Origin: an uncultured Candidatus Saccharibacteria bacterium
GTDB lineage: Bacteria > Patescibacteriota > Minisyncoccia > Phycocordibacterales > UBA918
Assembly: GCA_964618165.1 (NCBI GenBank)
Contig: CAZTWW010000001.1
Coordinates: 499 to 64,498 of the forward strand
Reading direction: 5' to 3'
DNA: 64,000 bases
Shown here: positions 36,703 through 62,621 of the stretch, one piece after another
How positions within the stretch are numbered: position 1 is the first letter of the stretch
How the letters are laid out: each line of letters opens with the position of its first letter
Position numbers and translations under genes: made by a program
The notes under the pieces: model-generated
Told to the model about the DNA's origin: nothing
The model's database searches: none
What the model saw: the letters and a program-made list of their open reading frames with translations, nothing else

Positions 36703-36711
36703 TGGTATAGT
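36703..36711 (+). promoter_or_regulatory. Extended -10 element TGGTATAGT 8 nt upstream of the AI-2E transporter ATG
   Basis: A TGnTATAnT-type motif. The short distance to the start codon implies a leaderless or near-leaderless mRNA. Confidence 0.4.
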
Positions 36712-36719
36712 TTTGCTAT

Positions 36720-37775
36720 ATGGCTCGAGGGAGAATTATCGAGTATACCTTTTTCTTTAGTACGCTGGCGCTCGTTGGTTATATTGCGTGGCAAATATTT
36801 TTTCCGTTTCTGACGGCACTTGCCCTATCTGCGATAACCGTCATTATCTGTTATCCAATGTACCGCTTTATCTTGCGGTTCATTACGAGACAGAATCGAA
36901 CCCTGGCGGCACTGCTGGCTACCTTGGTAGTGTTTTGTGCAGTGGTGACTCCGGTCTCACTTGTTTCCACCCTCCTCGTAAACGAATTTGTTTCCTTTTA
37001 TCGCTCACTAGAGTCGACTGGTCAGCTTCCAATCGATACGATGATGACCGGTGTTGAAACAACCATCCAAACCTACATACCAACTTTTGATCTTAATCTC
37101 TCGGCCCAGATCCGTGAGAGTGTCTCGTGGTTTGCAGGCAATCTCGGTACTATCTTCGCCGGTACACTATCTGTTGTATTCACGTTCCTGATTGCTATGC
37201 TCGGATCATTCTATCTCTTCAAAGACGGTGAACGACTCGTTGCGTGGATGGTATCAGTTAGTCCACTGAAGGATACGGAAGACAAGGTTATTATGGATAG
37301 AATTGCTCGTTCTATTCGCTCGGTGGCGACTGGCACCGTGCTCGTCGCTATCCTCCAGGGTGTTGCAGCAGCCCTTGGTTTTTCTATCTTTGGTATCGAT
37401 AGACCTATCCTCTGGGGTACGATTGGTGCGCTCGGTGCACTCCTTCCTGGCTTTGGTACAGCAACGATTATGGTGCCAGCGGTTGGTTACCTTATCTACA
37501 TTGGAGAGTTTGGACCGGCAGTAGGTCTGGCTGTCTGGGGTATTGCGACGATGGTCATTGTCGACAACTTTATCAGTCCGTATCTCATGAGTCGAGGTAA
37601 TAATCTCCATCCGTTTGTAGTACTCCTCTCAGTACTTGGTGGTATTTCACTGTTTGGACCAATTGGCTTTATTATTGGTCCGGTGATGGTGAGTCTCTTT
37701 ATGGTACTCTTAGAGCTCTACAGTCTCTATGTGTCTGATGATAGATTGACCCCAACACGTAAAGCAAAGCGCTAA
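36720..37775 (+). CDS. AI-2E family transporter (PerM/UPF0118-like permease), 351 aa
   Basis: Eight predicted TM segments. Conserved region 'IFGIDRPILWGTIGALGALLPGFGTATIMVPAVGYL' is typical of the AI-2E/PerM family. Confidence 0.8.
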   Translation: MARGRIIEYTFFFSTLALVGYIAWQIFFPFLTALALSAITVIICYPMYRFILRFITRQNRTLAALLATLVVFCAVVTPVSLVSTLLVNEFVSFYRSLESTGQLPIDTMMTGVETTIQTYIPTFDLNLSAQIRESVSWFAGNLGTIFAGTLSVVFTFLIAMLGSFYLFKDGERLVAWMVSVSPLKDTEDKVIMDRIARSIRSVATGTVLVAILQGVAAALGFSIFGIDRPILWGTIGALGALLPGFGTATIMVPAVGYLIYIGEFGPAVGLAVWGIATMVIVDNFISPYLMSRGNNLHPFVVLLSVLGGISLFGPIGFIIGPVMVSLFMVLLELYSLYVSDDRLTPTRKAKR

Positions 37776-37776
37776 T

Positions 37777-38211
37777 ATGATAGACAAGAATCAAATTGAG
37801 ACAATATTGAAAACTAATGGTATTCATCCAACTGCGCCTGATGAGGTTATTCGTTCTGTCCTCATTAGTGCCCGCTGGAACGACAATGATGTCGATACTG
37901 CCCTCATGGTTCTTAAAGAGAATACTGCGACAAATACCAGTCACGTTGATACGCTCCATCGTGTTTTTCATACTGATGAAAAGCTCTCGCCAGCAGACAT
38001 TAGTGCTATGTTGGGAGTAAAGGTGGCCATTGATGATAGTGACCTCAAAGATCTCCAAGCTGAACGTCGTCGAATCGAGAAGACTCAGATGCGTGCCTCT
38101 CTTATCCTGGCTTTCAGTATCGTGCTATTTGGGTTAACCTATCTATTGTATGTCGAAAAAGCTGGAGTTTTCCACCCGTCAGAAAATCCTCCTGTATCTC
38201 AGCCTCGCTAG
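37777..38211 (+). CDS. Hypothetical protein with C-terminal TM helix (144 aa)
   Basis: The ATG lies 2 nt after the upstream stop. TM helix LILAFSIVLFGLTYLLYV near the C-terminus. Confidence 0.6.
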   Translation: MIDKNQIETILKTNGIHPTAPDEVIRSVLISARWNDNDVDTALMVLKENTATNTSHVDTLHRVFHTDEKLSPADISAMLGVKVAIDDSDLKDLQAERRRIEKTQMRASLILAFSIVLFGLTYLLYVEKAGVFHPSENPPVSQPR

Positions 38212-39226
38212 TGCTGGGGTTGTACTTTTACTTATTCAGCTGTTTATTCCTGCCACCATCGTTACAGAAGTCACCTTTGACTCCCAAGTCCTAGAAGTAA
38301 CCCCAGTTCTTCCACCACCTCCAAAACCGCTAGTCATAAACTTTACCGGCGACATTATGCTCGGGCGACATGTCGAGGTGCTGCTCAACCGACATGGGCA
38401 TGGGTATGTGCGTGCGAGCAGTTCGCCTCTCTTACCACCCGCAGATGCGACGGTGGTAAACTTTGAAAGCGCAGTCGCCCTCCCGCACATCTCAACTCCG
38501 TCTGGTGGTATGCGCTTTTCGACTGATGTACGACATATCGCGCTCTTGCGCTCACTTGGGGTGACACACGCATCGTTGGCGAATAATCATGGACGCGATT
38601 ACGGACGTGATGGTCTTATGAATGCGTACAATGCTCTGGCGGATGAGCAGATAATCGCTTTTGGTGACCCAGTTTTGGTTGCTACCTCATCTCTCGTCAT
38701 TATTCCTGGTGAGATAGACACTGTTGGTGTGATTGGGATCCATACACTTTTTGGTATGCCGGACGTTGAGACACTCGGCACACTCATGACTGCTCTCATC
38801 GCCTCAAGCACGTATCAGGTGGCATATATCCATTGGGGTAATGAGTATGAGCTCGTTCATAGTGGAGCTCAGTCTGCCTTTGCTCGTCGATTGATTGGAC
38901 TTGGTGTCGATGCGATTATTGCCCACCATCCCCATGTGGTTCAGGATATACAGCTCATTGATGGTGTGCCAGTATTTTACTCACTCGGCAACTTTATCTT
39001 TGATCAGTACTTTAGCGATGATGTGCGTGAAGGTATGAATCTAACACTCACGCTTGCTACTACTACCGCAGCGTTTACTATCATTCCGCACGCACAGTGT
39101 GCGCTCGCAGTACCGTGTCCTCGTGATGCCACTTCAACAACGCGCTTCCTCGCAGCACTCGCAGACAGAAGTGAACCATCACTTCGAGAGCAAATAATGG
39201 CTCAAACTATCACTATTTCACGCTAG
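38150..39226 (+). CDS. CapA/PgsA-like metallophosphatase (poly-gamma-glutamate/capsule biosynthesis family), membrane-anchored
   Basis: N-terminal TM helix, then 'INFTGDIMLGRHV', 'HASLANNHGRDYG', 'IIAHHPHVVQ' and 'GNFIFDQYFSDD', which match the CapA calcineurin-like phosphoesterase motifs. The start at 38150 overlaps the previous ORF by 62 nt, so the true start is uncertain. Confidence 0.65.
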   Translation: MSKKLEFSTRQKILLYLSLASAGVVLLLIQLFIPATIVTEVTFDSQVLEVTPVLPPPPKPLVINFTGDIMLGRHVEVLLNRHGHGYVRASSSPLLPPADATVVNFESAVALPHISTPSGGMRFSTDVRHIALLRSLGVTHASLANNHGRDYGRDGLMNAYNALADEQIIAFGDPVLVATSSLVIIPGEIDTVGVIGIHTLFGMPDVETLGTLMTALIASSTYQVAYIHWGNEYELVHSGAQSAFARRLIGLGVDAIIAHHPHVVQDIQLIDGVPVFYSLGNFIFDQYFSDDVREGMNLTLTLATTTAAFTIIPHAQCALAVPCPRDATSTTRFLAALADRSEPSLREQIMAQTITISR

Positions 39227-39280
39227 TGGTTGCACGATAGCGGTCACCATCGTACTATTAGTACTACTAACTTTTTGTGT

Positions 39281-39823
39281 ATGTTTTCTAAGATAGAAAT
39301 TGCTGGTATTGCCCTCAGTGTCACCGCGATGACCGGTGCTCTCTATTTGATTACCAAAGACGACAGCAAGGTGGTTGTAAATGTTAATGATCAGATGGCA
39401 CAATCGGGTATGGTCTTTGTGTCTGATGAGGGTGACCCTGAAGCTAATCTCCGTAGCGCTATCATCAATGCAGCAGACGCAACTGGTAATCTCTCGAAGC
39501 TTGTGGTCGATGACGTGGTCATCGGTACCGGAGCTGAGGCAGCGGTAGGAGACACGGTAACCGTTCACTACATCGGAACACTCCAGAATGGTCAGGAGTT
39601 CGATAACTCAAATAAGCGCGGTGAGGCCTTCACATTCACCCTCGGCGAGAATAAGGTGATTGCCGGTTGGGAAGAGGGTATTCTTGGTATGAAGGCTGGA
39701 GGCAAGCGTATCCTCGTGATTCCGGCTGATAAGGCCTATGGTGCGAAGGGGTACGGCCCAATCCCTGGTGGAGCCAACCTGGTCTTCGCGATAGATCTCC
39801 TTGAGATTAAGTCAGGTAAATAA
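39281..39823 (+). CDS. FKBP-type peptidyl-prolyl cis-trans isomerase with N-terminal membrane anchor
   Basis: 'GDTVTVHYIGTLQNGQEFDNS...AFTFTLGENKVIAGWEEGILGMKAGGKRILVIPADKAYGAKG...GANLVFAIDLLEI' is the canonical FKBP domain. I chose the internal ATG at 39281 (MFSKIEIAGIAL...). Confidence 0.85.
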   Translation: MFSKIEIAGIALSVTAMTGALYLITKDDSKVVVNVNDQMAQSGMVFVSDEGDPEANLRSAIINAADATGNLSKLVVDDVVIGTGAEAAVGDTVTVHYIGTLQNGQEFDNSNKRGEAFTFTLGENKVIAGWEEGILGMKAGGKRILVIPADKAYGAKGYGPIPGGANLVFAIDLLEIKSGK

Positions 39824-39828
39824 GAAGA

Positions 39829-39856
39829 AGGCCCGGAGTTAATCCGGGCTTTTTCG
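39829..39856 (+). terminator. Intrinsic terminator after the FKBP gene
   Basis: Hairpin GCCCGGAGTTAATCCGGGC followed by TTTTTCG. Confidence 0.8.
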
Positions 39857-39894
39857 TGCAGATTTCTCCAAATACGCTATACTCGAACCCATCT

Positions 39895-41142
39895 ATGTCA
39901 CAGCGACCAGTATGGTTTGAAACCGAGGCTACCAGCACTAAGAATCTCGCTCGAGCGGGGGTTATTCATACACCACATGGTGATATTCATACACCAGCGT
40001 TTGTAGTGGTGGGTACCAAGGCCTCGGTCAAATCCCTCATGCCTGAGGATCTTACCCAGTACGTGGGGAACGAGGTAACACTCGCGAATACCTACCACCT
40101 TTTCCTCCAGCCAGGACATGAGGTCATTAAAGCTGGTGGGGGACTCAATGAATTTGCCAAGTGGCAGACACCGACCATGACCGACTCAGGCGGATTCCAG
40201 GTGTTTAGTCTTGGCGCTGCCTTCGGAAAAGGGGTGACCAAGTTCGCCAAAGGCGAGGTCGAGGAGACTGATGAGCTCCCGGTCAAGAAAGGGCTCAATG
40301 TGTACAGTCAGAAGTACGCCGAAGATCACGGCAAGCTCTGTATCATTGATGAAGAAGGGGTGACCTTCACCTCACATCTTGATGGCTCGATGCATCGCTT
40401 CACCGCCGAGCGGAGTATCGATATTCAGCATGCCATTGGGGCAGATATTATTGTTGCGTTTGATGAATGTACGAGCCCAACTGCGGATTATGAATACCAA
40501 AAAGAGGCAATGGACCGTACGCACCGCTGGGCGAAGCGAAGCATCCTCGCCCATAAGCAAAATTACGAAGCCTTAAAGAAGCAAGGTCTCTACGGCGTCA
40601 TTCAAGGTGGTCGTTTTATGGACTTACGGCAGGAGAGTGCTCGTGTGCTCTCCGATATGGATTTTGATGGTTTTGGGATTGGCGGTAGCTTCAGTAAAGA
40701 GGATCTCGGAGACTCGCTTAAGGTAGTGAATGAGATTCTTCCAGACGATAAACCACGACACCTCCTTGGTATTGGTGAACCAGAGGATATTGTGCAGGGT
40801 ATCCTCCAGGGTTGCGATACCTTTGACTGTGTCGCTCCAACCCGCATTGGTCGCACTGGCACGATTTACGTGCATACCGGTAACATGGTGACGACACCAT
40901 GTGGTACTTTTACCTACCCAGAGACTAAGAAGCTCAATCTCCGCAATGCCCAGTACGTTAACGACCATACGCCACTCGATCCACTCTCAACTGGCTATGT
41001 CGCGCAGAAGTACACGAAGGCCTATGTCGCACACCTCTTCCGGGCTGGTGAGATTCTCGGACCACACCTCGCCTCAATCCATAACCTCAACTTCATCGTC
41101 AACTTCACAAAGAATTTACGCGAACAGCTTCTTCAAAAGTAG
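39895..41142 (+). CDS. tgt: Queuine tRNA-ribosyltransferase (Tgt) homolog that lacks the CxCxxC zinc-site cysteines
   Basis: 'TPAFVVVGTKASVKSL', 'TDSGGFQVFSL', 'HAIGADIIVAFDECT', 'LYGVIQGG' and 'LLGIGEPEDI' match Tgt. At the position where I expect the zinc-binding CxCxxC, the sequence reads 'PLDPLSTGYVAQKYTKAYVAHL'. The start could instead be 39856. TATACT lies about 12 nt upstream. Confidence 0.8.
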   Translation: MSQRPVWFETEATSTKNLARAGVIHTPHGDIHTPAFVVVGTKASVKSLMPEDLTQYVGNEVTLANTYHLFLQPGHEVIKAGGGLNEFAKWQTPTMTDSGGFQVFSLGAAFGKGVTKFAKGEVEETDELPVKKGLNVYSQKYAEDHGKLCIIDEEGVTFTSHLDGSMHRFTAERSIDIQHAIGADIIVAFDECTSPTADYEYQKEAMDRTHRWAKRSILAHKQNYEALKKQGLYGVIQGGRFMDLRQESARVLSDMDFDGFGIGGSFSKEDLGDSLKVVNEILPDDKPRHLLGIGEPEDIVQGILQGCDTFDCVAPTRIGRTGTIYVHTGNMVTTPCGTFTYPETKKLNLRNAQYVNDHTPLDPLSTGYVAQKYTKAYVAHLFRAGEILGPHLASIHNLNFIVNFTKNLREQLLQK

Positions 41143-41223
41143 CTATAGGATAACCTCAAAAAGTTGAAGCCGGCTTGAGTTTGTGGGTTTATATTTTGAG
41201 TCTAGCGCGGTATACTCAGCAGC

Positions 41224-43368: not shown

Positions 43369-43372
43369 CAGT

Positions 43373-43400
43373 GCCCTCCCTAGGCCGGTCCTAGGGAGGG
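43373..43400. repeat. Palindromic element CCCTCCCTAGG-ccggt-CCTAGGGAGGG (copy 1)
   Basis: A perfect 11-bp-arm hairpin lies 5 nt after the uvrB stop. A near-identical copy is at 44036-44062. Confidence 0.7.
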
Positions 43401-43440
43401 TGTTTACAGTAACAGTAACGTACAAAAACTAACTATTACT

Positions 43441-43996: not shown

Positions 43997-44005
43997 CATC
44001 TAAAG

Positions 44006-47212: not shown

Positions 47213-47267
47213 TCCATATAAATCGTTATGCTAGTCTATAGATAGTCGACCAGATACGGAGGGTGTC

Positions 47268-47450
47268 ATGAAGTACCTGCGGTACATGGTAGCGAGTTCT
47301 TTCTATCTCACTTTTATTGGCTGCTTATTACTCGGTTCTGTCTCGCTTTCTACCGGCGGGAAAGAGTTCTTTGATGGAGTACTGTACTTTATCTTGGCAT
47401 TTATTGCTCTTGCTGCTGGTGTAAAGATTACAAACAAGCAGAACGACTAA
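47268..47450 (+). CDS. Small two-TM membrane protein (60 aa)
   Basis: SD ACGGAGGGTG precedes the ATG. Two hydrophobic helices. The terminator at 47449-47483 follows immediately. Confidence 0.5.
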   Translation: MKYLRYMVASSFYLTFIGCLLLGSVSLSTGGKEFFDGVLYFILAFIALAAGVKITNKQND

Positions 47451-47483
47451 CCGCCCCAGCACCGATGATTGGGGCGGTTTTTG
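47449..47483 (+). terminator. Intrinsic terminator
   Basis: CCGCCCCAGCAccgatgaTTGGGGCGG followed by TTTTTGATTT. Confidence 0.8.
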
Positions 47484-47487
47484 ATTT

Positions 47488-47496
47488 GTGGTAGAG
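47488..47496 (+). promoter_or_regulatory. Extended -10 element TGGTAGAGT 7 nt upstream of the uvrC ATG
   Basis: A TGnTAnAnT motif. The spacing implies a leaderless uvrC transcript. Confidence 0.4.
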
Positions 47497-47503
47497 TACC
47501 CGT

Positions 47504-48739
47504 ATGACAAAAGGAGACCTCAAAGCCCTCGCGCTCCCGGACACCCCTGGGGTGTATTTTTTCCTTGGCCCACAAGAGCAGATTCTTTATATTGGGAAGG
47601 CGACTTCGCTCAAGAACCGTGTCCGTAGCTACTTCGCGAGTGATATCAAAGAGAAACGCTCTGAGCTCATTGAAAACATGGTTACTGAGGCGGTGACAGT
47701 ATCAGTCACTGAGACTGAGAGTGTGCTTGAGGCACTTATTCTTGAGACGAATCTCATCAGGACACACAAGCCGCGGTACAACACTCGTAGTAAAGACGAT
47801 AAGTCATACAATCACCTCGTGATTACGAACGAAGAATGGCCACGCGTTCTCGTCGTTCGAGGCAAAGACCTCACCGAAAAGTTTACTGAAAAGGAAATTA
47901 AATATCACTTCGGACCGTTTCCGAGTGGCAGTCTCTTGCGCGAGGCGCTTAAGATTGTCCGTCGCCTCTTTCAGTTCTATGACACCAAGGAGCCGGTCGG
48001 GTTTGAACGGACCAAGCTTGCCCGTGGTAAAGTCGATTTTAATCGTCAGATTGGTCTCTATCCAAATCACACTGATAAGCCGCTGTACGACCGTACCATT
48101 AGGCACCTGAAGCTCTTCTTTGAAGGTAAAAAGCGCCAGATTATCACCGAGCTCACGAAGGATATGCTCAAAGAAGCAAAAGCCGAGCGATTCGAAATGG
48201 CAGCCAAGATTAAAAAGCAAATCTTCGCCCTTGAGCATATCCAAGATATCGCACTCATCAAAGCTGAGCGTGCTACCGCTCGCACTGGCCAGACACTCCG
48301 CATTGAGGCATACGATATCGCGCATATGGACGGCCAGGATATGGTTGGTGTCATGACGGTGGTTGAAGGGAGCGAGCCACAAAAGGATGGCTACCGCAAA
48401 TTCAAAATAAAGACACTCAAAGACGCCAACGACCCCGCGGCTCTCAAAGAGGTGTTAACGAGACGTCTCGCGCACCCAGAGTGGCCGTTTCCAAATATCA
48501 TCGTAGTTGACGGCAACGAGATTCAGAAGCGCGTCGCCGAGCTTATTCTTGCCGAGCATTCGCTCCTTATACCGGTCGTAGCAGTCGTCAAAGACGATAA
48601 GCACAAGGCAAACCGTATCCTCGGCCCACAGGCACTCATTGAGGCGCATCGTCTCGAGATACTCCACGCCAACGCCGAATCACACCGCTTTGCCATCAAC
48701 TTCTTCCGCACCAAGCAACGCAAGCGCTCGCTATCTTAG
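47504..48739 (+). CDS. uvrC: Excinuclease ABC subunit C-like (short UvrC, 411 aa) with GIY-YIG + UVR + RNase H-like endonuclease region, lacking the C-terminal (HhH)2 domain
   Basis: GIY-YIG motifs 'GVYFFLGPQEQILYIGKATSLKNRVRSYF' and 'ETNLIRTHKPRYN'. UVR motif 'FEMAAKIKKQIFALEHI'. Second nuclease region 'RIEAYDIAHMDGQDMVGVMTVVEGSEPQKDGYRKFKIK...IIVVDGNEIQ'. The protein ends without helix-hairpin-helix motifs. Confidence 0.8.
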   Translation: MTKGDLKALALPDTPGVYFFLGPQEQILYIGKATSLKNRVRSYFASDIKEKRSELIENMVTEAVTVSVTETESVLEALILETNLIRTHKPRYNTRSKDDKSYNHLVITNEEWPRVLVVRGKDLTEKFTEKEIKYHFGPFPSGSLLREALKIVRRLFQFYDTKEPVGFERTKLARGKVDFNRQIGLYPNHTDKPLYDRTIRHLKLFFEGKKRQIITELTKDMLKEAKAERFEMAAKIKKQIFALEHIQDIALIKAERATARTGQTLRIEAYDIAHMDGQDMVGVMTVVEGSEPQKDGYRKFKIKTLKDANDPAALKEVLTRRLAHPEWPFPNIIVVDGNEIQKRVAELILAEHSLLIPVVAVVKDDKHKANRILGPQALIEAHRLEILHANAESHRFAINFFRTKQRKRSLS

Positions 48740-49436: not shown

Positions 49437-49532
49437 ATCGAACACAACACCAAAGCGAGCAGGTAACCCTGCTCGCTTTTGTATACATGATTTCAATACT
49501 CGCAATGTATTTATGGTAAACTGTAGCTACGT

Positions 49533-50863: not shown

Positions 50864-50883
50864 CAGGGTATACTACACGTATA

Positions 50884-51494: not shown

Positions 51495-51563
51495 TCTCCT
51501 TGACTCTGACACTAAATCTGCGTATTATATGGACCAGCTTGCGATTGTCGCGATCGCAAACTT

Positions 51564-51639
51564 GGGCCTGTAGCTCACTTGGTAGAGCGCCTCATTTGCA
51601 CTGAGGAGGCAGCGGGTTCGAATCCTGTCAGGTCCACCA
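51564..51639 (+). tRNA. tRNA-Ala (anticodon TGC)
   Basis: Cloverleaf: acceptor stem GGGCCTG/CAGGTCC with G3:U70, D-arm GCTC-ACTTGGTA-GAGC, anticodon stem CCTCA/TGAGG with loop TTTGCAC, T-arm with TTCGAAT loop, encoded CCA 3' end. Confidence 0.9.
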
Positions 51640-52936: not shown

Positions 52937-53009
52937 GGGAACCCCGCTTTTTCCTCAGCCGTATAGTACATGCCCCAGATTGTCTGTCCAGTCTTGGTAT
53001 ACTACGAGT

Positions 53010-53748: not shown

Positions 53749-54309
53749 ATGAAAAAACTATCACGCACCGAACAAGCAACGCTCAAGAACCTCAAGCAGC
53801 AGCTCACTACCCTCGAATCAAACCTTCTGACCGCGAAGCGTAAAGAAGGTATCGACGACAACCTCACCATCAAGGTAAAGAAGAATAAAGCCAACTACAG
53901 CAAAACGAAGCGCAACGGTGCCAAGGATACAGTCGAGGGGACGTTCTTCATCCTCCTCACCGTAACGGCAAAGGCCAATACCATCTATGTACCGATCTCA
54001 ATGGCGTCCGGCAAGAAGCAGGCTGGCTTCATGTACCAGATAGAGGGGACAGACACCGGCGCTATCGGGCGAGCGAGTGTCGATAGCCGAGGCGAGGGGG
54101 TGAAGGAGGTGACTGTCGGCACCATTGTCTATGCCATGATCCCACCAAAGATGACAGCTGAATTCAGGATAAATGTCACCATCGGTGGCCGGGTCGGCCA
54201 GACGTACAACATTGTCATCAACCGTATCAACTACAAGCTCAGTCTCGACGACACCCGCTACCAGCAGTACTTGAAGCCAATTGTGTCTGATAGTGTGAAG
54301 TTTAGCTAA
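53749..54309 (+). CDS. Hypothetical protein (186 aa)
   Basis: CATAAT lies 9 nt upstream. No recognisable motif. Lys-rich N-terminus. Confidence 0.55.
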   Translation: MKKLSRTEQATLKNLKQQLTTLESNLLTAKRKEGIDDNLTIKVKKNKANYSKTKRNGAKDTVEGTFFILLTVTAKANTIYVPISMASGKKQAGFMYQIEGTDTGAIGRASVDSRGEGVKEVTVGTIVYAMIPPKMTAEFRINVTIGGRVGQTYNIVINRINYKLSLDDTRYQQYLKPIVSDSVKFS

Positions 54310-54331
54310 TCTTCTCATTCCACTACGACAG

Positions 54332-54340
54332 TGGTACTAT
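54332..54340 (+). promoter_or_regulatory. Extended -10 element TGGTACTAT 6 nt upstream of the MazG-like ATG
   Basis: A TGnTAnnAT motif. Same architecture as the other near-start -10 elements. Confidence 0.35.
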
Positions 54341-54346
54341 GGAAAT

Positions 54347-54694
54347 ATGGATTCAAATGACAGACTAACAATTCTAAGTGAGAGAATAAAGACTTTTTGT
54401 TCTGAGCGTGAGTGGTCACAATTCCATGACCCAAAAAATCTAGCTATCTCTCTACAACTTGAAGCATCTGAAGTGTTAGAGCTGTTTCAGTGGACAAAAG
54501 ATAATCAAGTAAAGTCTGGTAAAGAAGCAAGTATCTCAGAGGAGGTTGCAGACGTTTTTTACTGGTTATTAATGCTTGCTAACCACTATAATATTGATTT
54601 AGTAGAAGCATTAAACTCTAAGATGGATATAAATGAAATTAAGTATCCAGTCAATAAGTCTAAAGGAGTTTCAACAAAATATACTGACCTATGA
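54347..54694 (+). CDS. MazG-like nucleoside triphosphate pyrophosphohydrolase (115 aa)
   Basis: 'LTILSERIKTFCSEREWSQFHDPKNLAISLQLEASEVLELFQW' ... 'EEVADVFYWLLMLANHYNIDLVEAL' is the all-alpha MazG/dCTPase-like fold with its EExxE/D motifs. AT-rich coding sequence. Confidence 0.75.
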   Translation: MDSNDRLTILSERIKTFCSEREWSQFHDPKNLAISLQLEASEVLELFQWTKDNQVKSGKEASISEEVADVFYWLLMLANHYNIDLVEALNSKMDINEIKYPVNKSKGVSTKYTDL

Positions 54695-56550
54695 TTGTTT
54701 ATGAAGCTACGGCTGCAAAGTTTATAGAAGATGTTGATTCAAACAACATTATTTCCGAAATTGAGAAAGCATTTCGAAGTAAGCTAGGTCGTGGAATACC
54801 ACCAAGTGAAATCTCTGCCTACTCAAACTCTTTACCGCACATGGAAAGAGTAGTGAGAAGATCAGGTGTACCTTCTGATTGTGGTATTCTAATAGAATAT
54901 AAAATTCCTCTTACTAACTTCAGAATTGATTTTGTTATATCAGGTGAAGACGACAATGGAAACAAAAATTTCGTAATTGTTGAGTTAAAACAGTGGCAGA
55001 AAGCTGACATTGCAGAGGGTGATGGATTAGTAGAGGCGTTTACCGGCAATGCTTTAAGAACGGTGACACATCCTAGTTACCAAGCATCACGTTATAAAGA
55101 TTATATATGTGATTTTAATGAAGTGTTTTATACAGGTTCTGTAAAAGCATACTCGTGTGCTTACCTACATAACTATGAAGAAAAGAGAGTTGAACCACTT
55201 TTAGATTCACGCTATAGCAAAGTTACCGAAGAGACACCTATTTATTTCAGAGACGATCAATCAAAACTCCAGGAGTTTATAAAGAAGTATGTTAAACAGG
55301 GTAAAGGAATGGATATCCTTTACCATGTAAATAATGGGAGGATTAAACCTTCAAAAAAACTTATTGACCATGTCTCAAGCATGTTTGAAGGTAACAGCAA
55401 TTACATTCTTTTAGATGAACAAAAGGTAGCATTCGAAACAGCTAGAAAGATTGCAAATCAGCAATTAAAGAACGTTGTTATCATAAAGGGTGGTCCTGGT
55501 ACAGGGAAGTCTGTTATATCAGTAAATCTGGTTAGCGCACTACTGAAAGATAACTTAAATGCGATTTTCGTAGCGCCAAACTCGTCGTTTAGAAATGCCT
55601 TGGTGAAGCGGCTTACTCAAAACCATCCAAGGCAACGTATAAACAATATATTCAAAGGCTCGGCTTCGTTTTATGACACCGCAGAAAACGAATTCGACGT
55701 GCTCGTCGTAGACGAAGCGCATCGGCTAAAAGCAAAGGGTGCATTTATGTACAAAGGTGTTAACCAAGTACTAGATGTTATTAAATCTGCACAGACTTCA
55801 ATCTTCTTCATAGATGACAATCAGGCAGTAAGACCAGAAGATATAGGTTCTGTAGAGTCAATTAAGAAAATTGCTGAGTCTCTTGATGTAAATGTTACTG
55901 AGTTAGAGCTTTCGGCACAATTTCGCTGTGCGGGAGCTGATGGCTATCTTAACTGGCTTGATGATGTCTTACAAATTAGGGAAACAGCTAATTACGATGG
56001 TTGGGACAAAAAGAGTTTTGATTTTAGGATATGTGAAAATCCTAATGAACTTCGTGATGAAATAAATAGGAAGTCAGAAGAAGGTTTCAATAGTCGCATT
56101 TTAGCTGGTTACGCTTGGGACTGGACTCCAGCCGGAAGAGGTAATGAAAATGCAGAAGTTAATGACATTTGCATTCCTGAGTTTGATTTTAAAATGCCTT
56201 GGAACTCAAGACGAGTGGGTACAACCTGGGCCATAGAAGATGCTGGTAAAAATCAAATTGGTTGTATTCATACATCGCAAGGCTTAGAGTTTGATTATGT
56301 AGGAGTGATTGTCGGTCTCGACCTGCAATATGATCAACAGTTATCAATGTATTTAACCAAGCATGAACAATATAAAGATAAGCTTGGTAAGAAAGGCTTA
56401 AGAGATAAACCGGAAGAACTTAATAAACTTGTTCGAAATATATATAAAGTGTTAATGTCTCGTGGAATGAAAGGTTGTTATGTGTATTTCATGGATAAAG
56501 AAGTAGAAAATTACTTTAAATCTAGATTAGGAACTGTAAAAGATGTGTAA
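54691..56550 (+). CDS. DUF2075 (SLFN-like P-loop ATPase/helicase) protein with N-terminal PD-(D/E)xK nuclease-like domain (619 aa)
   Basis: ATGA overlap with the MazG-like gene. N-terminal 'FRIDFVISGEDDNGNKNFVIVELKQWQ' has a D...E-x-K arrangement. Walker A 'GGPGTGKSVISVNLV'. Walker B/DEAH-like 'VLVVDEAHRL'. 'SAQFRCAG'. 'IHTSQGLEFDYVGVIVG', a helicase motif VI-like segment. AT-rich. Confidence 0.75.
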   Translation: MIVYEATAAKFIEDVDSNNIISEIEKAFRSKLGRGIPPSEISAYSNSLPHMERVVRRSGVPSDCGILIEYKIPLTNFRIDFVISGEDDNGNKNFVIVELKQWQKADIAEGDGLVEAFTGNALRTVTHPSYQASRYKDYICDFNEVFYTGSVKAYSCAYLHNYEEKRVEPLLDSRYSKVTEETPIYFRDDQSKLQEFIKKYVKQGKGMDILYHVNNGRIKPSKKLIDHVSSMFEGNSNYILLDEQKVAFETARKIANQQLKNVVIIKGGPGTGKSVISVNLVSALLKDNLNAIFVAPNSSFRNALVKRLTQNHPRQRINNIFKGSASFYDTAENEFDVLVVDEAHRLKAKGAFMYKGVNQVLDVIKSAQTSIFFIDDNQAVRPEDIGSVESIKKIAESLDVNVTELELSAQFRCAGADGYLNWLDDVLQIRETANYDGWDKKSFDFRICENPNELRDEINRKSEEGFNSRILAGYAWDWTPAGRGNENAEVNDICIPEFDFKMPWNSRRVGTTWAIEDAGKNQIGCIHTSQGLEFDYVGVIVGLDLQYDQQLSMYLTKHEQYKDKLGKKGLRDKPEELNKLVRNIYKVLMSRGMKGCYVYFMDKEVENYFKSRLGTVKDV

Positions 56551-56590
56551 AAGCAGTTGCAAGTCCGCTCATTATGATCAATGATCAGGA

Positions 56591-56788
56591 ATGACTAAAG
56601 TAAAATATTTACGACACCAGTGTCAGCACTGTGGGTCAGAATCGAAACTTTTAGAAACAATTATTGATGATGAATTTATTTGGGATGATACATCTAAACA
56701 GTATCAACCACACCAATATACGGACTGTTTTGAGCATACTGGTAAAGAGCGTTGTGCTAGATGTCAGCAAGACTGGACTGGGGTATGA
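56591..56788 (+). CDS. Zinc-ribbon miniprotein 1 (65 aa; CxxC...CxxC)
   Basis: 'CQHCGSES...CARCQQ'. AT-rich. Lies 40 nt after the DUF2075 stop. Confidence 0.5.
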   Translation: MTKVKYLRHQCQHCGSESKLLETIIDDEFIWDDTSKQYQPHQYTDCFEHTGKERCARCQQDWTGV

Positions 56789-56973
56789 ATCAACGAATAT
56801 ATTGTTGTAAATGTAAGCTGAAGCTTGAGTATATTGTTTTACGTCAGGTTGAAGAAGTGTTTTATAAGTATGACATAGTTACTAATCAGCTCAGTGATTA
56901 TCACGGAGACGGCTCAGTTATTACGAGTGATTACAAGTGTCCATTTTGCAACACATCACAAACGCTAGATTAG
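56785..56973 (+). CDS. Zinc-ribbon miniprotein 2 (62 aa; CCKCK...CPFC)
   Basis: ATGA overlap with miniprotein 1 (ATG at 56785). 'YCCKCKLKLEY...YKCPFCNTSQ'. Confidence 0.5.
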   Translation: MNQRIYCCKCKLKLEYIVLRQVEEVFYKYDIVTNQLSDYHGDGSVITSDYKCPFCNTSQTLD

Positions 56974-57055
56974 TGTTAATCATCGAGAAATCACTTTACA
57001 ACCCCTCAATCCTTCGGTACTGTTCACGCTAGAGTGTGAGGAAGGGGAGGGTCAG

Positions 57056-57556: not shown

Positions 57557-57559
57557 AAG

Positions 57560-57592
57560 ACGACCGCGGTGGCGACACCGCGGTTTTTCTCT
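57560..57592 (+). terminator. Intrinsic terminator
   Basis: ACCGCGGTGGCGACACCGCGGT followed by TTTTTCTCT. Confidence 0.8.
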
Positions 57593-57622
57593 GCCTCGTG
57601 TCGTGGTACGATATCGCGTATT

Positions 57623-58413: not shown

Positions 58414-58522
58414 ATGGTAGGGGTGTATACCCCCCTTAGACTGTCCGACTCAATCACTCCTACCAGACACTGCTCTGAAACTGCCTCAACCTGACCCCGC
58501 CCACAAGGTGGGGTCTTTTTTA
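58414..58522 (+). ncRNA. Candidate small RNA (about 110 nt): extended -10 promoter, internal hairpin, intrinsic terminator
   Basis: TGGTACTGT at 58398-58406. Then hairpin AGGGGTGTATACCCCCCT. Then the terminator ACCCCGCCCACAAGGTGGGGT + TCTTTTTT (58495-58522). No convincing ORF in the 470-bp gap between 58039 and 58538. Confidence 0.3.
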
Positions 58523-58531
58523 TGGTATAGT
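58523..58531 (+). promoter_or_regulatory. Extended -10 element TGGTATAGT 6 nt upstream of the CPBP protease ATG
   Basis: Same motif and spacing as at 36703 and 62613. Confidence 0.4.
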
Positions 58532-58537
58532 CGCAGT

Positions 58538-59065
58538 ATGAGGCGACTCGTAGCGTATATCTCTCACCTCGCAGACCCAAATCCGTATCATGCAAATGAA
58601 TGGGCGTATTACCGCTTGCCGGCACTGGTCATCGTGATTGATGTAGTACTGTCAATTGGGTTGGCGGTTGTGTTTAGTGTGACCGATACAATCGAACCAG
58701 TCGAGCCGATCGGGGTACCGATTCTCTCGCTCTGGTTTATTCCGTTTCTTCTCCTTGTATCAACGATTGAAGAGCTCTTATTCCGGATTATACCGCTCTC
58801 TATCGCCATGAGTGCGAGTGAACGAAAGATTATGCATGTGCTTACCGCACTCATCGCCGCCATGCTCTTTGGCTACGTGCATGGTGGGTGGGCGAATGTG
58901 CCCCTCCAGGGGATTGGTGGCTTTCTCTATGGACTCCTCTTTATCCGCTACGCGCGGGGTGGCGAAGCCTTCTTAGAGGCAAGTATCGTCGTGATAATGA
59001 TGCATACGGCCTTTAATGGATTGATTGGGATGATTGCGCTCCTCGGTGGTGAGACCATGTTTTAA
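58538..59065 (+). CDS. CPBP family intramembrane glutamic protease (CAAX protease/Abi-like), 175 aa
   Basis: Motif 1 'EELLFRIIPL', motif 2 'FGYVHG', motif 3 'HTAFN', in a multi-TM protein. I chose the ATG at 58538 (MRRLVAYISHL...). Confidence 0.75.
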   Translation: MRRLVAYISHLADPNPYHANEWAYYRLPALVIVIDVVLSIGLAVVFSVTDTIEPVEPIGVPILSLWFIPFLLLVSTIEELLFRIIPLSIAMSASERKIMHVLTALIAAMLFGYVHGGWANVPLQGIGGFLYGLLFIRYARGGEAFLEASIVVIMMHTAFNGLIGMIALLGGETMF

Positions 59066-59118
59066 GTAGATTGTGCAGTCTTTTATCAGGCAGTCTTCTT
59101 TGGTAAGCTAGGAAGCCT

Positions 59119-60228
59119 GTGAAGCGTATTCTATTGAGTCTTGTTGCTATTGGTATCGTGATTAGCGCGGTTGTTGTCGTGCGTGGTGTGCCAAGTGCCA
59201 TGACACTCCCGTTTAGTGCCACTGAGGAGGATTTTGATAATGAACCAGTTGAACTCCTTGATGCGGAGACGATACGCGTCGGGCAGGGTGGGTGGTATAC
59301 CATCGCGGAGCTGGCCTCCTATAAGCGGCCAGAAGGCCCACTCCGGGTCGGGGTACAGATTGGACACCTTGATAACGATAAGGTACCAGAAGAATTGAAG
59401 GCACTCACAGCGAATACCGGCGCAAGCTTCGGTACGGTAACTGAGCGCGAGCTCATGAAGCAAATTGGCGAGAAGGTACGGGTTGAACTTGAGGCGCGTG
59501 GTGTCGTGGTGGATGTCCTCCCAGCGACGGTACCGCCGAAGTATGAGGCTGACGCCTTCATTGCGCTCCATGCTGATGGTAACCAGAATCGTCGGGCACG
59601 CGGTTTTAAGATTGCAGGACCTCGTCGGGATTATTCTGGCCTCTCTGAGCGTCTAGTCTCGAGTCTCACCACCGCCTACGCCTCGACCACGAAGCTCCCG
59701 TTTGATGACACCATTACCCGTCGAATGACGGCGTACTACGCCTTTAACTGGCCACGCTATGAGCACGCGATACACCCGTTCACCCCAGCCGCGATAGTAG
59801 AGACAGGGTACGTCACCGACGCCGTTGATAGAGCCTTCCTCATTAACCAGCAAGATGTCATCGCCACGGCGATTGCGGACGGCGTTATGGACTTCCTTGC
59901 AACAGAACGAACACCAAATCCACCAGCCGGCTCCCTTGAGATACCAAGCATGCCACTCTCAGGCACCGTTGTCTGTGCACCAATCCGCGCTGACCGTGGT
60001 GGTACCACCACACCAGAATGTGTCCCGGGCCTTAAGACCAGTGACGGTACCCACTACCTCCTTGAGCCAAAGGAGCGAATAGCGACCACCTCACTACCGT
60101 TTACCACGACGGTACGTGGGCGCTACGTACCAGCCAACACACTCCCGAACTACTTCTGGTTCCCATATGAGGTACGTGGCTTCATTATGGAGAGCGAGAT
60201 TGCGACGGTTACCGTTGCACCTTTATAG
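59119..60228 (+). CDS. Secreted N-acetylmuramoyl-L-alanine amidase-like protein (Amidase_3-like), 369 aa
   Basis: GTG start at 59119, with TGGTAAGCT 9 nt upstream. Signal peptide. 'LRVGVQIGHLDN', 'ELMKQIGEKVRVELEARGVVVDVL' and 'ADAFIALHADGNQNRRARGFKIAG' resemble the MurNAc-LAA His/Glu/His arrangement. Confidence 0.55.
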   Translation: MKRILLSLVAIGIVISAVVVVRGVPSAMTLPFSATEEDFDNEPVELLDAETIRVGQGGWYTIAELASYKRPEGPLRVGVQIGHLDNDKVPEELKALTANTGASFGTVTERELMKQIGEKVRVELEARGVVVDVLPATVPPKYEADAFIALHADGNQNRRARGFKIAGPRRDYSGLSERLVSSLTTAYASTTKLPFDDTITRRMTAYYAFNWPRYEHAIHPFTPAAIVETGYVTDAVDRAFLINQQDVIATAIADGVMDFLATERTPNPPAGSLEIPSMPLSGTVVCAPIRADRGGTTTPECVPGLKTSDGTHYLLEPKERIATTSLPFTTTVRGRYVPANTLPNYFWFPYEVRGFIMESEIATVTVAPL

Positions 60229-60242
60229 TATCGAGGCAAGAG

Positions 60243-60272
60243 AAAAGGCGCCTGGTGGGCGCCTTTACTTTA
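60243..60272. terminator. Bidirectional intrinsic terminator between convergent genes
   Basis: AAAGGCGCCTGGTGGGCGCCTTT flanked by A- and T-runs. Confidence 0.75.
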
Positions 60273-60731
60273 ACATTGCTCTGCGTCTGCATGTTTGATA
60301 ATCAGCAACATACCGTCTTGGTGACGCACCCGCCAGAAGTTCCTACCCCAAAAGGGGAACTCACTATTGCCGGGTACAATAAGCGGAGACACTTTCTCTT
60401 TTGTCAGAATACGCCGATTCTCGAGCATGAAGGCTTCGACTCGGTGCAGATCTTTAGATGGTACACTCGATATTGACCAAGCAGAACCGAACCAAAGAAA
60501 GCAGCGTATGAAAAACTTCCGATTAGCCGGTGTACCCGGACGGTAGAGACACTCCTCAAGACGCGATATGAGACGGTCTTCTTGTCGATCGCTCTCACAG
60601 TTAACGATATGGATCAGTTTCTGGTCCTCAAAGAACAACCTCGATGAGAGCGGATCTTCCGTGGTAATGTTCGTGCTTGCTTGTCCGACATAGACGATGT
60701 TGTTGTCGACTATCGGCATCTTGACGTTCAT
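60270..60731 (-). CDS. Hypothetical protein (153 aa)
   Basis: Strong SD AAAGGGGG 6 nt upstream of the ATG on the minus strand. Convergent with the amidase-like gene. No recognisable motif. Confidence 0.5.
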   Translation of the reverse strand: MNVKMPIVDNNIVYVGQASTNITTEDPLSSRLFFEDQKLIHIVNCESDRQEDRLISRLEECLYRPGTPANRKFFIRCFLWFGSAWSISSVPSKDLHRVEAFMLENRRILTKEKVSPLIVPGNSEFPFWGRNFWRVRHQDGMLLIIKHADAEQC

Positions 60732-60849
60732 GGTAAACCCCCTTTGTTTTCCGTCGTGATTATGCCAGCAAATAGCATAAGTGCAAGGAATCCACGACCT
60801 CAGAAGAGAGTGATGCAGTCATATTAGACAAAAGTGCTACTATACATGA

Positions 60850-61581
60850 ATGGATACCACTGAACCACACGAAGCTCAGCCAACTACGATTTCTAACAAT
60901 CGCTATGAATCGCTCAATCGTGTCACCACGCTTTCGAAGTACCTTGCGCTCACACTGTTTGTAGCATTACCGTTTATTGGTGGGTATGTCGGGTATCAGC
61001 TCTCTGCATCGACACATGTCTCGATGCTGTATGAGTCTCCAAGCAACGTTGTGGTGCCTGTGGAGATATCGACACCAACTACAGCCGTCTCTTCTGATGC
61101 ATATACTTCGTGGTCGCTCCAGCAGTCATTCCAGATACCATTGTCTGGTGACACTTCTCTGATTGGAACGCTGCAGTTTGGTGCGATGGGAAGTGTCGGT
61201 GAAGCAATGATTGATGCCCCATTGTCTGCTATTAAAGTCGATGCTGCTGCCAGAACAATACATGCCGATGAAGGAGGTATTCCGCTCCTCACCGTGCATG
61301 AGTATTCAGGTAGCACTACCATGCGAGATTTCATAGCTACACTTATCTTGCCTATTATGACCATGTCTGAAAGCTGTACCATGGAAACGGTCACCACTAA
61401 GGAAGGGAACATTTACTACAGTTTTGTCGGAACACTAGAAGATAATGCTTGTCCGGAACGTATGCAGTTTGTGCAACTAAACAACTATGTAGCGGTTATA
61501 TGGTACACCCCAGTTGATCCAGAATCTGCTCGCATTGACGCCACTAGCCTGCGCCTCACATCACCGACCCTACTGCAATAG
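60850..61581 (+). CDS. Membrane-anchored or secreted hypothetical protein (243 aa)
   Basis: TM helix LALTLFVALPFIGGYVGY. No recognisable motif. Confidence 0.6.
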   Translation: MDTTEPHEAQPTTISNNRYESLNRVTTLSKYLALTLFVALPFIGGYVGYQLSASTHVSMLYESPSNVVVPVEISTPTTAVSSDAYTSWSLQQSFQIPLSGDTSLIGTLQFGAMGSVGEAMIDAPLSAIKVDAAARTIHADEGGIPLLTVHEYSGSTTMRDFIATLILPIMTMSESCTMETVTTKEGNIYYSFVGTLEDNACPERMQFVQLNNYVAVIWYTPVDPESARIDATSLRLTSPTLLQ

Positions 61582-61639
61582 TATGTCTATAAACGCGTAC
61601 CTTAGTTGTTGCATATCTCTGTAATACGTGGTTTTATAC

Positions 61640-61895
61640 AGAGGCGGAGGCTACTTGCCGCACTCGTTACTAACACTAGTACACCAGTGAATTTGGTACG
61701 TAGCCTCCGTAAGTTTGTTCTTTACGGAGGTATATAAAAATGAAAACAAACATTTCAATTGTTCTTTTTATTGATAAGTACGGTGTGGTACACACCACAA
61801 GGCAGGGCTGCATACAGGCAAACATGCAGTAATCACGCGGGGTAACCCGCCTGATAGGGCGCTCGGGAATGAAACCACCGAGCGCCTTTTCATAT
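61640..61895. other. Highly structured non-coding region (candidate ncRNA or riboregulator) ending in a terminator-like hairpin
   Basis: Nested stems GGAGGCTAC/GTAGCCTCC and CTCCGTAAG/CTTTACGGAG. Then four consecutive hairpins: GTGGTacacACCAC, CTGCATacaggcaaacATGCAG, GCGGGgtaaCCCGC and GGCGCTCGGgaatgaaaccaCCGAGCGCC + TTTTCAT. Confidence 0.35.
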
Positions 61896-62101
61896 GCTTG
61901 AAATATCAAAAATATGTGGTCTCGGTGCATTCGAGAAAGTGACGAAAATGGGTGTATCCTGATACCGACATGACGGTCTGTCAAAGGTGTGGTATGGGTG
62001 ATCGGTGCGATAATAGTATTATTTTAAGCCATATTTTGAGTATCCGGTAATCATGTGCTTTGGCTTTGTCAACTTGCCGGCCAGAACGGTGGTGGTAGTA
62101 T

Positions 62102-62545
62102 GTGCATATGGAAAGCATCTTTAATCGTCATACTGATCTCGCGACCGGTATCAAAAATCACCTTCAGACACTGCGTCGGGAGGAACAGCGATTACAGGTT
62201 CGATTGCTCGCGGTCGACCGCTGCCAGCGTGTCATTAAGACCCTCCAACTTGATGCCGATGGGGCAGAGGAAGGGGAGGATGAGTTCAGCGAAGCGCTCG
62301 CGAACGTCGAGGCCATCAAGTACGACCTCACGACCTACCTCCGTCAGCTTCGTGACCGGATTGTGCATATTGAGCGTGGTGTCTCACAGATATACAGTCT
62401 CGAGCAGAATCCGAGTGCACAGACGTTTGCCCTCTATATTGAGGAAGATGCCCGCCTCTGCGCGCGCGATGTCCTCGTTGCACGCGAAGGCTACGATGAA
62501 CTCATCGAGAACATCCAAGCCCTCAGTCACCTCCGCGACCAGTAA
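62102..62545 (+). CDS. Hypothetical helical protein (147 aa)
   Basis: The composition is protein-like. The terminator at 62551-62577 (GCCCCGATGTGGGGT + ATTTTTTG) follows. I rejected the overlapping frame at 62055. Confidence 0.6.
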   Translation: MHMESIFNRHTDLATGIKNHLQTLRREEQRLQVRLLAVDRCQRVIKTLQLDADGAEEGEDEFSEALANVEAIKYDLTTYLRQLRDRIVHIERGVSQIYSLEQNPSAQTFALYIEEDARLCARDVLVAREGYDELIENIQALSHLRDQ

Positions 62546-62612
62546 CGAAAATGCCCCGATGTGGGGTATTTTTTGATTCGGTTATCATAGTATTGAATAG
62601 TAGATATTTTTA

Positions 62613-62621
62613 TGGTATAGT
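62613..62621 (+). promoter_or_regulatory. Extended -10 element TGGTATAGT 8 nt upstream of the ATG at 62630
   Basis: Identical to the 9-mer at 36703 and 58523. Confidence 0.4.

Follow-up and report, generated by a model that had tools for sequence, protein, structure and literature searches.

The window analysed here is a 64-kb stretch of contig CAZTWW010000001.1 from an uncultured Candidatus Saccharibacteria bacterium (48% GC, nearly all genes on the plus strand). In it an extended −10 promoter element, a box of the form TGGTA(T/A/G/C)NNT, recurs a few bases in front of start codons. Among about 33 genes that come first in their transcription unit, 16 (about 48%) carry this box and about 10 carry a GGAGG-type Shine–Dalgarno (SD) sequence instead. 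We consider it highly probable that the box is the extended −10 (TRTGnTAnnnT) of a housekeeping sigma-70-type promoter, that it gives rise to leaderless or short-leader mRNAs, and that this mode works alongside SD-led and SD-less, coupled initiation. The reading is carried by the identity of the motif, by its placement and the statistics of that placement, by its conservation in the clade and by the reliability of the start codons.

Box sites in front of start codons

A sequence-only reading of the window had listed nine sites of this kind. All nine 9-mers are present, and two of the entries were off by one: TGGTAGAGT had been placed at 47488, 7 nucleotides (nt) from uvrC, and in fact starts at 47489, 6 nt from ATG 47504, while GGGTATACT at 50866, given with a spacing of 9 nt, lies 8 nt from ATG 50883. 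The recurrence of the motif before starts was borne out and extended, since the reading of every upstream region added seven further sites. In the lines below, coordinates are those of the 9-mer and spacing is the number of nucleotides between the end of the box and the start codon; protein lengths are in amino acids (aa).

The nine sites listed before:
36703–36711, plus strand: extended −10 box TGGTATAGT, spacing 8 to ATG 36720, AI-2E transporter
47489–47497, plus strand: TGGTAGAGT box in the TgTGG form, spacing 6 to ATG 47504, uvrC
49514–49522, plus strand: TGGTAAACT box in the TaTGG form, spacing 10 to ATG 49533, ddl
50866–50874, plus strand: GGGTATACT box, spacing 8 to ATG 50883, 203-aa protein; the box lies within the 3′ end of the preceding gene
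52995–53003, plus strand: TGGTATACT box, spacing 6 to ATG 53010, 130-aa protein
54332–54340, plus strand: TGGTACTAT box, spacing 6 to ATG 54347, MazG-like protein, first gene of a low-GC island
58523–58531, plus strand: TGGTATAGT box in the TaTGG form, spacing 6 to ATG 58538, CAAX protease
59101–59109, plus strand: TGGTAAGCT box, spacing 9 to GTG 59119, amidase
62613–62621, plus strand: TGGTATAGT box in the TaTGG form, spacing 8 to ATG 62630, zinc-finger protein; TTGAAT lies 17 nt upstream of the box

The seven further sites:
12102–12110, plus strand: TGCCATAAT box, spacing 6 to ATG 12117; a weaker box (CATAAT), the weakest of the set
20941–20949, plus strand: TTGTATACT box, spacing 6 to ATG 20956; after a terminator-like hairpin
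39875–39883, plus strand: cgcTATACT box, spacing 11 to ATG 39895, tgt
41208–41216, plus strand: cGGTATACT box, spacing 7 to ATG 41224, uvrB
57604–57612, plus strand: TGGTACGAT box, spacing 10 to ATG 57623, 138-aa protein; shortly after a terminator at 57562–57585
60835–60843, plus strand: TGCTACTAT box, spacing 6 to ATG 60850, 243-aa protein
62093–62101, plus strand: TGGTAGTAT box, spacing 6 to ATG 62108, 145-aa protein

The spacing is 6 at eight of the 16 sites, 7 at one, 8 at three and 9–11 at four. Fifteen of the genes start with ATG, and the amidase gene, with its GTG, is the sole exception.

Placement of the motif in the window and in relatives

The strict form of the motif, TGGTADAST, was found nine times on both strands of the window, compared with 3.2 ± 1.9 in dinucleotide shuffles, of which 1 in 100 reached nine. 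Taken by itself, this count is only modestly enriched. Six of the nine matches, however, lie 6–10 nt before a curated start, for which the chance is 0.0018 per match (binomial P = 3e-15). The curated starts, 46 in the window, were chosen from the boundaries of open reading frames (ORFs), the gene calls of a public collection and homology; TGNTANNNT was present 5–10 nt upstream of 11 of them, versus 0.5 expected from offsets 15–62 of the same genes (P = 8e-12). When 5-mers were ranked by enrichment between −22 and −4 of 47 starts, GTATA, TGGTA, TATAC, TACTA, GGTAT and ATACT, fragments of TGGTATACT, came above the SD word GAGGG.

Strict-motif matches at 38454 and 48025 are intragenic with no start after them and were treated as chance; the match at 18940, on the minus strand, also has no start codon after it. 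TGGTATTAT at 25169 was rejected as a leaderless member: only 2 nt separate it from GTG 25180, too short a distance for that GTG to be transcribed. Its likelier role is that of a leadered promoter serving ATG 25219. Within 25169–25221, GTG 25180 is the longest-ORF start, and a 14-codon upstream ORF beginning at ATG 25178 ends in a TGA that overlaps ATG 25219 (ATGA); the two candidate starts of this gene, 25180 and 25219, give proteins of 512–525 aa.

The genome-wide enrichment check that had been suggested with the nine sites was run on relatives, namely 53 ddl-centred loci of Patescibacteria that total about 0.8 Mb and 665 ORFs of at least 100 codons. The closest genomes carrying the window's D-Ala-D-Ala ligase (Ddl) are metagenome-assembled genomes labelled Parcubacteria, Paceibacteria or Kaiserbacteria, with 62–71% identity, which places the window in a Patescibacteria genome of Paceibacteria/Kaiserbacteria-like type. 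As a control set we used 27 loci from outside the candidate phyla radiation (CPR), with 312 ORFs, in an identical pipeline; starts in both sets were taken by a naive first-ATG rule. The outcome was strongly positive in the 665 genes of the relatives and negative in the controls. In the relatives TGNTANNNT occurred at spacing 6 in 48 genes, at 7 in 14, at 8 in 8, at 9 in 19 and at 10 in 7, versus about 2 per offset elsewhere, a total of 96 genes at the peak spacings against about 10 expected. The 312 non-CPR genes gave no TGNTANNNT peak and an ordinary SD peak at 6–9 nt; among the relatives, an SD peak was shown by about 8% of genes. By identity tier of the relatives, enrichment was 15-fold in the close, 10-fold in the middle and 7-fold in the distant tier.

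Because the loci are syntenic, proteins were clustered and one gene was sampled per family. Over 376 protein families, 32 genes carried the motif versus 6.1 expected (P = 2e-13), with a mode at spacing 6 and a secondary peak at 9; the peak at 9 is partly made up of repeated uvrC orthologues. Similarly, as a TAA, TAG or TGA inside the motif could bound an ORF, the test was repeated in the relatives with stop-free variants, and both remained enriched: TA[TC]NNT at 161 versus 52.5 and the extended form at 39 versus 4.5. The stop-codon artefact suspected behind the 3-nt periodicity of the spacing (6 and 9) is effectively ruled out by this. The signal is real, and it belongs to the clade and not to this contig alone.

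Conservation of the box in orthologues

The adjacency of box and ATG is kept in orthologues gene by gene, although the flanks, as in ddl, uvrC and uvrB, have diverged. Throughout the set of ddl orthologues, TG[CG]TAAAAT (in this form 6 nt before ATG) or TGATATA[AC]T stands 6–10 nt before ATG, and sequences farther upstream could not be aligned. Orthologues of uvrC carry TGTG[GA]TA[GC]AGT 8–9 nt before ATG in about 15 loci, usually directly after a terminator. In the orthologues of the 203-aa gene (relatives' loci L007–L009 and L011) TATACT is kept 8 nt before ATG, and in those of the zinc-finger gene (L015, L024 and L026) a TATAAT-like box is kept 7–9 nt before ATG. The uvrB and tgt orthologues likewise keep a box adjoining ATG, and the arrangement of TGGTAGTAT, 6 nt and ATG recurs in L007 and L009. 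N-terminal peptides are conserved in the orthologues, and where the N-terminus of one is shifted by a codon or two, the box is shifted too.

Promoter character of the box

The logo obtained from 259 sites aligned on the hexamer showed T at −5 (53%), A or G at −4, T at −3 (56%) and G at −2 (47%). It continued as TA-t-a-a-T, with T1, A2 and T6 of the hexamer invariant, and a faint TTG appeared 23 nt before the hexamer, equivalent to a spacer of 17 nt. With this consensus, TRTGnTAtaaT, the motif is a sigma-70/sigma-A extended −10 promoter with a TRTG "−16" element of the Gram-positive type and a nearly absent −35. Among the 16 window sites, TG is present in 12, G directly precedes the hexamer in 11 (hence TGGTA) and the hexamer is mostly TATA[C/G]T. 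The −35 match to TTGACA reached at most 4 of 6 positions at all 16. A standard two-hexamer sigma-70 scan of the window, unsuited to these sites because box promoters lack a −35, returned 21 sites versus 24.5 in shuffles and detected only one of the 16 boxes.

The box also avoids genes inside operons, recognized by a stop/start overlap or a gap of at most 10 nt (−4 to +10 nt from the preceding stop). In the relatives, extended boxes were found at 5.7% of operon-internal genes versus 16% of first genes (P = 8e-4), and in the window at 0 of 14 versus 16 of 33. The TRTG element, the invariant hexamer positions, the faint TTG and this avoidance of internal genes all agree with the identification as an extended −10 made in the sequence-only reading. 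Furthermore, the same type of box stands 27–30 nt upstream of the SD-led genes at 47268 and 63392, and intrinsic terminators directly precede some of the boxes:

47229–47270, plus strand: leadered SD unit for comparison, with TGCTAGTCT box at 47229–47237, GGAGGG at 47258–47263 and ATG 47268
63356–63394, plus strand: leadered SD unit for comparison, with TGTTATAGT box at 63356–63364, GAGGGGG at 63380–63386 and ATG 63392
51500–51528, plus strand: canonical promoter for comparison, TTGACT-17-TATTAT, 35 nt upstream of tRNA-Ala (51564–51639)
47451–47482, plus strand: terminator hairpin CCGCCCC...GGGGCGG with TTTTT, ending 6 nt before the uvrC box; 21 nt from T-tract to ATG
58493–58521, plus strand: intrinsic terminator with a 9-bp stem and TTTTTT, abutting the box at 58523; 16 nt from T-tract to ATG 58538

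With terminator T-tracts lying 16 nt (CAAX protease) and 21 nt (uvrC) before ATG, the new transcript must start inside this short interval. Depletion at internal genes, presence upstream of SD-led genes and terminators abutting the boxes together indicate that the signal acts in DNA, as a promoter, and not in mRNA at the ribosome. The tRNA-Ala promoter shows that ordinary sigma-70 signals serve the host RNA polymerase at a gene that is not translated.

The terminators in 47451–47497, 57562–57612 and 58493–58531 lie 1–18 nt from the −10 box of the next unit, and the T-tract of the terminator at the same time provides the T-rich stretch ahead of the TRTG element.

Start codons of the box genes

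As the argument needs there to be no room for a leader, the accuracy of the start codons matters. At 10 of the 16 sites an in-frame stop lies 0–16 codons upstream, with no alternative start between. This distance is 0–4 codons for uvrC, the zinc-finger gene, ddl (2 codons before ATG 49533), the AI-2E gene (3 codons before ATG 36720), the amidase gene (4 codons before GTG 59119) and the gene of the 243-aa protein, where the stop is immediately upstream. On the downstream side, alignment to solved structures (PDB) begins at residue 4–5 in Ddl and 3–4 in UvrB. The first domain residue is 16 for GIY-YIG in UvrC, 12 for AI-2E (Pfam) and 34 for the MazG-like protein; in all three the following in-frame start codon is located past this residue. 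Downstream alternative start codons are therefore excluded. For every box gene looked up, including those starting at 36720 and 53010, the gene caller of the public collection gave the same start. The start codons are thus shown to be reliable, and the start calls that had earlier been drawn from the motif are fixed independently, by in-frame stops, by homology from residues 3–5 and by the gene caller.

At spacing 6 or 9, a TAA or TAG within the hexamer can itself be the in-frame stop that bounds the ORF, as in ddl and uvrC orthologues (L007–L017) and at 47492, 59104 and 62096 in the window; in these cases the promoter box also blocks upstream in-frame extension.

Predicted transcription starts and leaders

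RNA polymerase in bacteria starts transcripts some 7 nt past the final T of the −10 hexamer, favouring a purine that has a pyrimidine before it. At spacing 6 the A of ATG accordingly falls at the canonical +1. In the relatives the base before ATG is a pyrimidine in 85% of the extended-box genes versus 63% of others (P = 3e-5), and in 45 of 48 genes at spacing 6; a pyrimidine also stands there at 15 of the 16 window sites. The mode at spacing 6, the pyrimidine at −1 with the purine at +1 and the terminators 16–21 nt before ATG give indirect support to the leaderless or short-leader interpretation that the sequence-only reading had attached to the motif, and we infer that the spacing-6/7 majority is truly leaderless and that the rest carry very short leaders. 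In the window a tA step falls on position 7 past the hexamer at each of the three spacing-8 sites, so that leaders of 2 nt (AU or AC) are predicted. At the sites with spacing 10–11 (ddl, the 138-aa gene and tgt) a pyrimidine-A step lies at position 7–8, with predicted leaders of 3–4 nt. For ddl the predicted transcription start site (TSS) is the A at 49529–49530, with a leader of 3–4 nt, and the tgt mRNA probably has a 4-nt leader. Sites at spacing 8–11 are thus probably short-leader and not strictly leaderless. Among 92 extended-box genes in the relatives, none had an SD-like word between −16 and −5. SD remnants between box and start in the window are confined to AGGAA at 59110 and 62622, at or before the predicted +1.

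In the mechanism that we propose, about half of the window's transcription units have the element 6–11 nt ahead of their start codon. The first base of the mRNA would be the A of AUG in the spacing-6/7 class (9 of 16 sites), and leaders of about 1–4 nt would be made in the spacing-8–11 class. Neither class would have room for an SD, so that initiation would occur by the ribosome and initiator tRNA binding the 5′-terminal AUG directly, as in Actinobacteria, Deinococcus and Mycoplasma. Given the poor −35, the TG/TRTG extension presumably supplies the promoter strength.

SD-led and operon-internal genes

Two initiation modes had been suggested from the sequence, one led by the motif and the other by strong GGAGG-type SDs. 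Both are present. The SDs named at 14711, 16678, 43688, 47268 (GGAGGG at 47258–47263) and 60731 (minus strand) are all real, and SD-led genes in the window also include 48804, 52565 (minus strand), 57056 and 63392. In this second mode the mRNA would be leadered, with a strong GGAGG-type SD 5–9 nt before ATG and the same −10 box about 27–30 nt upstream. From the presence of such genes the host probably keeps an anti-SD; the window itself carries no 16S rRNA gene.

The pair of modes was incomplete, since a third is found at internal genes, mostly without box or SD. Operon-internal starts in the window are the following:

13443, 17636, 21972, 23692, 24372, 32972, 37777, 50504 and 54691

An SD-like word was detected at 1–2 of 14 internal genes in the window and 4 of 141 in the relatives. 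This suggests that internal genes, usually devoid of an SD, would rely heavily on translational coupling (termination-reinitiation).

Alternative explanations

Several points weigh against leaderless initiation at the boxes. A pyrimidine at −1 is not discriminating in the window, where about 77% of the other genes have one. Seven of the 16 sites have spacings of 8–11, beyond the usual distance from −10 to TSS, and in the same class of the relatives a purine at position 7 is only modestly enriched (68%, n = 38). The predicted TSS positions are extrapolated from the geometry of E. coli-type RNA polymerase. The AGGAA at the 59101 and 62613 sites could act as a weak SD, were transcription to start farther upstream. 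The starts at 20956, 50883, 53010, 57623 and 58538 have in-frame alternatives upstream and rest on the gene caller and on orthologue conservation; among them 20956 is less certain, as in-frame TTG codons lie ahead of it. Lastly, the relatives' loci are all ddl neighbourhoods rather than whole genomes and their genes are partly orthologous, which was corrected by family sampling. Some of these points would suit a refinement, not a contradiction, in which the boxes are real promoters and transcription begins a few bases before AUG at most sites, giving leaders of 1–5 nt. The seven sites at spacing 8–11 speak for it, as do the tA steps at position 7 of all three spacing-8 sites, and in this class of the relatives position 7 has 68% purine and the largest number of pyrimidine-purine steps. 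However, spacing 6 is the dominant class of the relatives, with a pyrimidine at −1 in 45 of 48 genes and +1 on the A of ATG, and in the window eight sites have spacing 6 and one has 7. We hold such general short leaders to be possible, but would put them forward only tentatively.

The remaining alternatives question the promoter, the starts or the pattern itself. An AT-rich motif at the position of a ribosome-binding site could be a non-SD ribosome-binding or translation-enhancer element of mRNAs with conventional leaders, much like the AT-rich "group B" signals known from Bacteroidota. SD use is indeed low in the clade (about 8% of the relatives' genes) and an anti-SD motif was detected in only 48% of Parcubacteria (PMC9297842). 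A signal of this kind should precede operon-internal genes too (PMC6028130), whereas the boxes are depleted there, as given above (5.7% versus 16% in the relatives, 0 of 14 in the window). Moreover, the logo is of the sigma-70 type (TRTGnTAnnnT, with a spacer of 17 nt to a faint −35 TTG), the same box lies 27–30 nt upstream of SD-led genes, and terminators abutting the box leave no promoter upstream. We consider such an element very improbable. Still less probable is that starts were mis-called, true starts lying downstream and the boxes being ordinary promoters with normal leaders and SDs inside the annotated coding sequence. Start calling in the CPR is known to be uncertain and for five of the 16 genes the ORF boundaries leave more than one possible start; against this stand the homology of Ddl and UvrB from residues 3–5, the conserved N-terminal peptides of the orthologues, and the truncation of GIY-YIG (residue 16), AI-2E (12) and MazG-like (34) that a next in-frame start would bring about. 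Chance, or an artefact of AT-rich intergenic composition or of in-frame stops enriched before the first ATG, is effectively refuted. The strict-motif count is only about 3-fold over shuffles and the TAA or TAG of the hexamer bounds several ORFs at spacing 6 or 9, but stop-free variants stay enriched (161 versus 52.5 and 39 versus 4.5), the local controls at offsets 15–62 have the same composition and non-CPR loci show nothing in the identical pipeline.

Other features of the window

A stretch of 945 nt without an ORF above 41 aa (18743–19687) lies between two large secreted-protein genes and contains a strict-motif box, TGGTAGAGT, at 18940–18948 on the minus strand. Its minus-strand segment 18743–19040 folds more stably than shuffles (z = −3.5; 0 of 200 shuffles were as good). 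Rfam gave no match in 18743–19687, the tRNA being the only Rfam match in the window. The region may encode an unannotated non-coding RNA.

The low-GC island at 54300–57000 has 35% GC in a background of 48–55%. The stop of its MazG-like gene (54347–54694) overlaps the ATG of a gene for a 619-aa SLFN-type helicase, which matches the anti-phage models AbiO (1.5e-17) and Nhi (1e-16). Probably the island is a horizontally acquired defence module; even so, a leaderless box of the host type precedes its first gene.

UvrC (47504–48739) is short at 411 aa; it combines a GIY-YIG with an RNase H-like domain and lacks the C-terminal HhH region. Two giant ORFs, 168–10406 (3412 aa) and 26812–32970 (2052 aa), fill a quarter of the window, which encodes giant secreted proteins and a single tRNA. 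Exact copies of window proteins were found only on contigs of large environmental metagenome assemblies.

Comparison with known systems

Extended −10 promoters with a TRTG "−16 region" are known for Bacillus subtilis sigma-A and for Streptococcus, and TGn promoters for E. coli; they normally drive leadered, SD-containing mRNAs. The boxes described here share with them the T-R-T-G-n-T-A-t-a-a-T consensus and a dispensable or poor −35. They differ in being set so that the predicted +1 falls on the start codon; in the present species, moreover, n is preferably G and the hexamer preferably TATA[C/G]T instead of TATAAT.

Promoters of M. pneumoniae consist mainly of a −10 box, with the −35 weak or absent. 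A reduced genome and promoters defined by the −10, with weak or absent −35, are common to Mycoplasma and the present bacterium. The latter belongs to another phylum, uses code 11 (TGA is a stop in the ORF calls), has a higher GC content and keeps strong GGAGG SDs at some genes. Among code-4 genomes, many Mycoplasma are predicted to fall in the leaderless "group C", with 30–60% of genes predicted leaderless (MetaGeneMark-2 preprint, 10.1101/2022.07.25.500264).

For the same broad clade as our relatives, a survey of CPR ribosomes detected an anti-SD motif in only 48% of Parcubacteria 16S rRNA and left the mode of initiation open (Tsurumaki et al. 2022, PMC9297842). That result points to SD-independent initiation, with which the low SD frequency in the relatives agrees; leaderless mRNAs were not proposed there, and the window still uses GGAGG at some genes. 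Full-text searches for leaderless genes in Saccharibacteria, Patescibacteria or the candidate phyla radiation gave incidental mentions only; some CPR genomes may be classed as group C in the supplementary lists of GeneMarkS-2. TSSs, promoters and leaders are not dealt with in a TM7x transcriptome preprint. The architecture, known as group C, is thus apparently undescribed in this clade.

We lean, by a little, towards a wider statement: that initiation on leaderless mRNAs or those with leaders of at most 4 nt is the predominant mode of first genes throughout Paceibacteria/Parcubacteria, outnumbering SD-led initiation, with internal genes served by coupling. If true, this would explain initiation in the many Parcubacteria reported to have pared-down ribosomes and no detectable anti-SD, a testable answer to how translation starts there, and would make them the third major leaderless-dominated bacterial group after Actinobacteria and Deinococcus-Thermus. 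Bacteria dependent on leaderless mRNAs would then include a deep-branching lineage of mid GC and tiny genome, a point that bears on whether this mode is ancestral or was repeatedly selected under genome streamlining. In practice the box gives base-exact start calls for many hypothetical CPR genes, for which SD-based callers have little signal, and delimits transcription units where genomes are very compact. TRTGGTATA[C/G]T followed by 6 nt and ATG could serve as a usable native promoter for the genetic tools under construction for Patescibacteria. The mechanism itself is not new, and specialists in how translation is initiated would judge it plausible, not startling.

The closest counterpart of the window is group C, in which a Pribnow box lies 6–8 nt from the starts of first genes in operons and 25–50% of units are leaderless, as TSS mapping has shown for Mycobacterium, Corynebacterium, Streptomyces and Deinococcus (PMC6028130). 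As in Mycobacterium, Streptomyces, Corynebacterium and Deinococcus deserti, the −10 box here is near the start of first genes without an SD, and SD-led genes coexist with them. The host differs, being a CPR bacterium of mid GC (48%) and ultrasmall genome and not a high-GC actinobacterium or Deinococcus. The box also differs, with its strong TG/TRTG extension, almost no −35 and a tail of spacings up to 9–11 nt. Internal genes here are mostly devoid of an SD, whereas those of group C are described as using ribosome-binding sites. The leaderless share, predicted from sequence at about 48% of window units, compares with the published 25–50% of group C.

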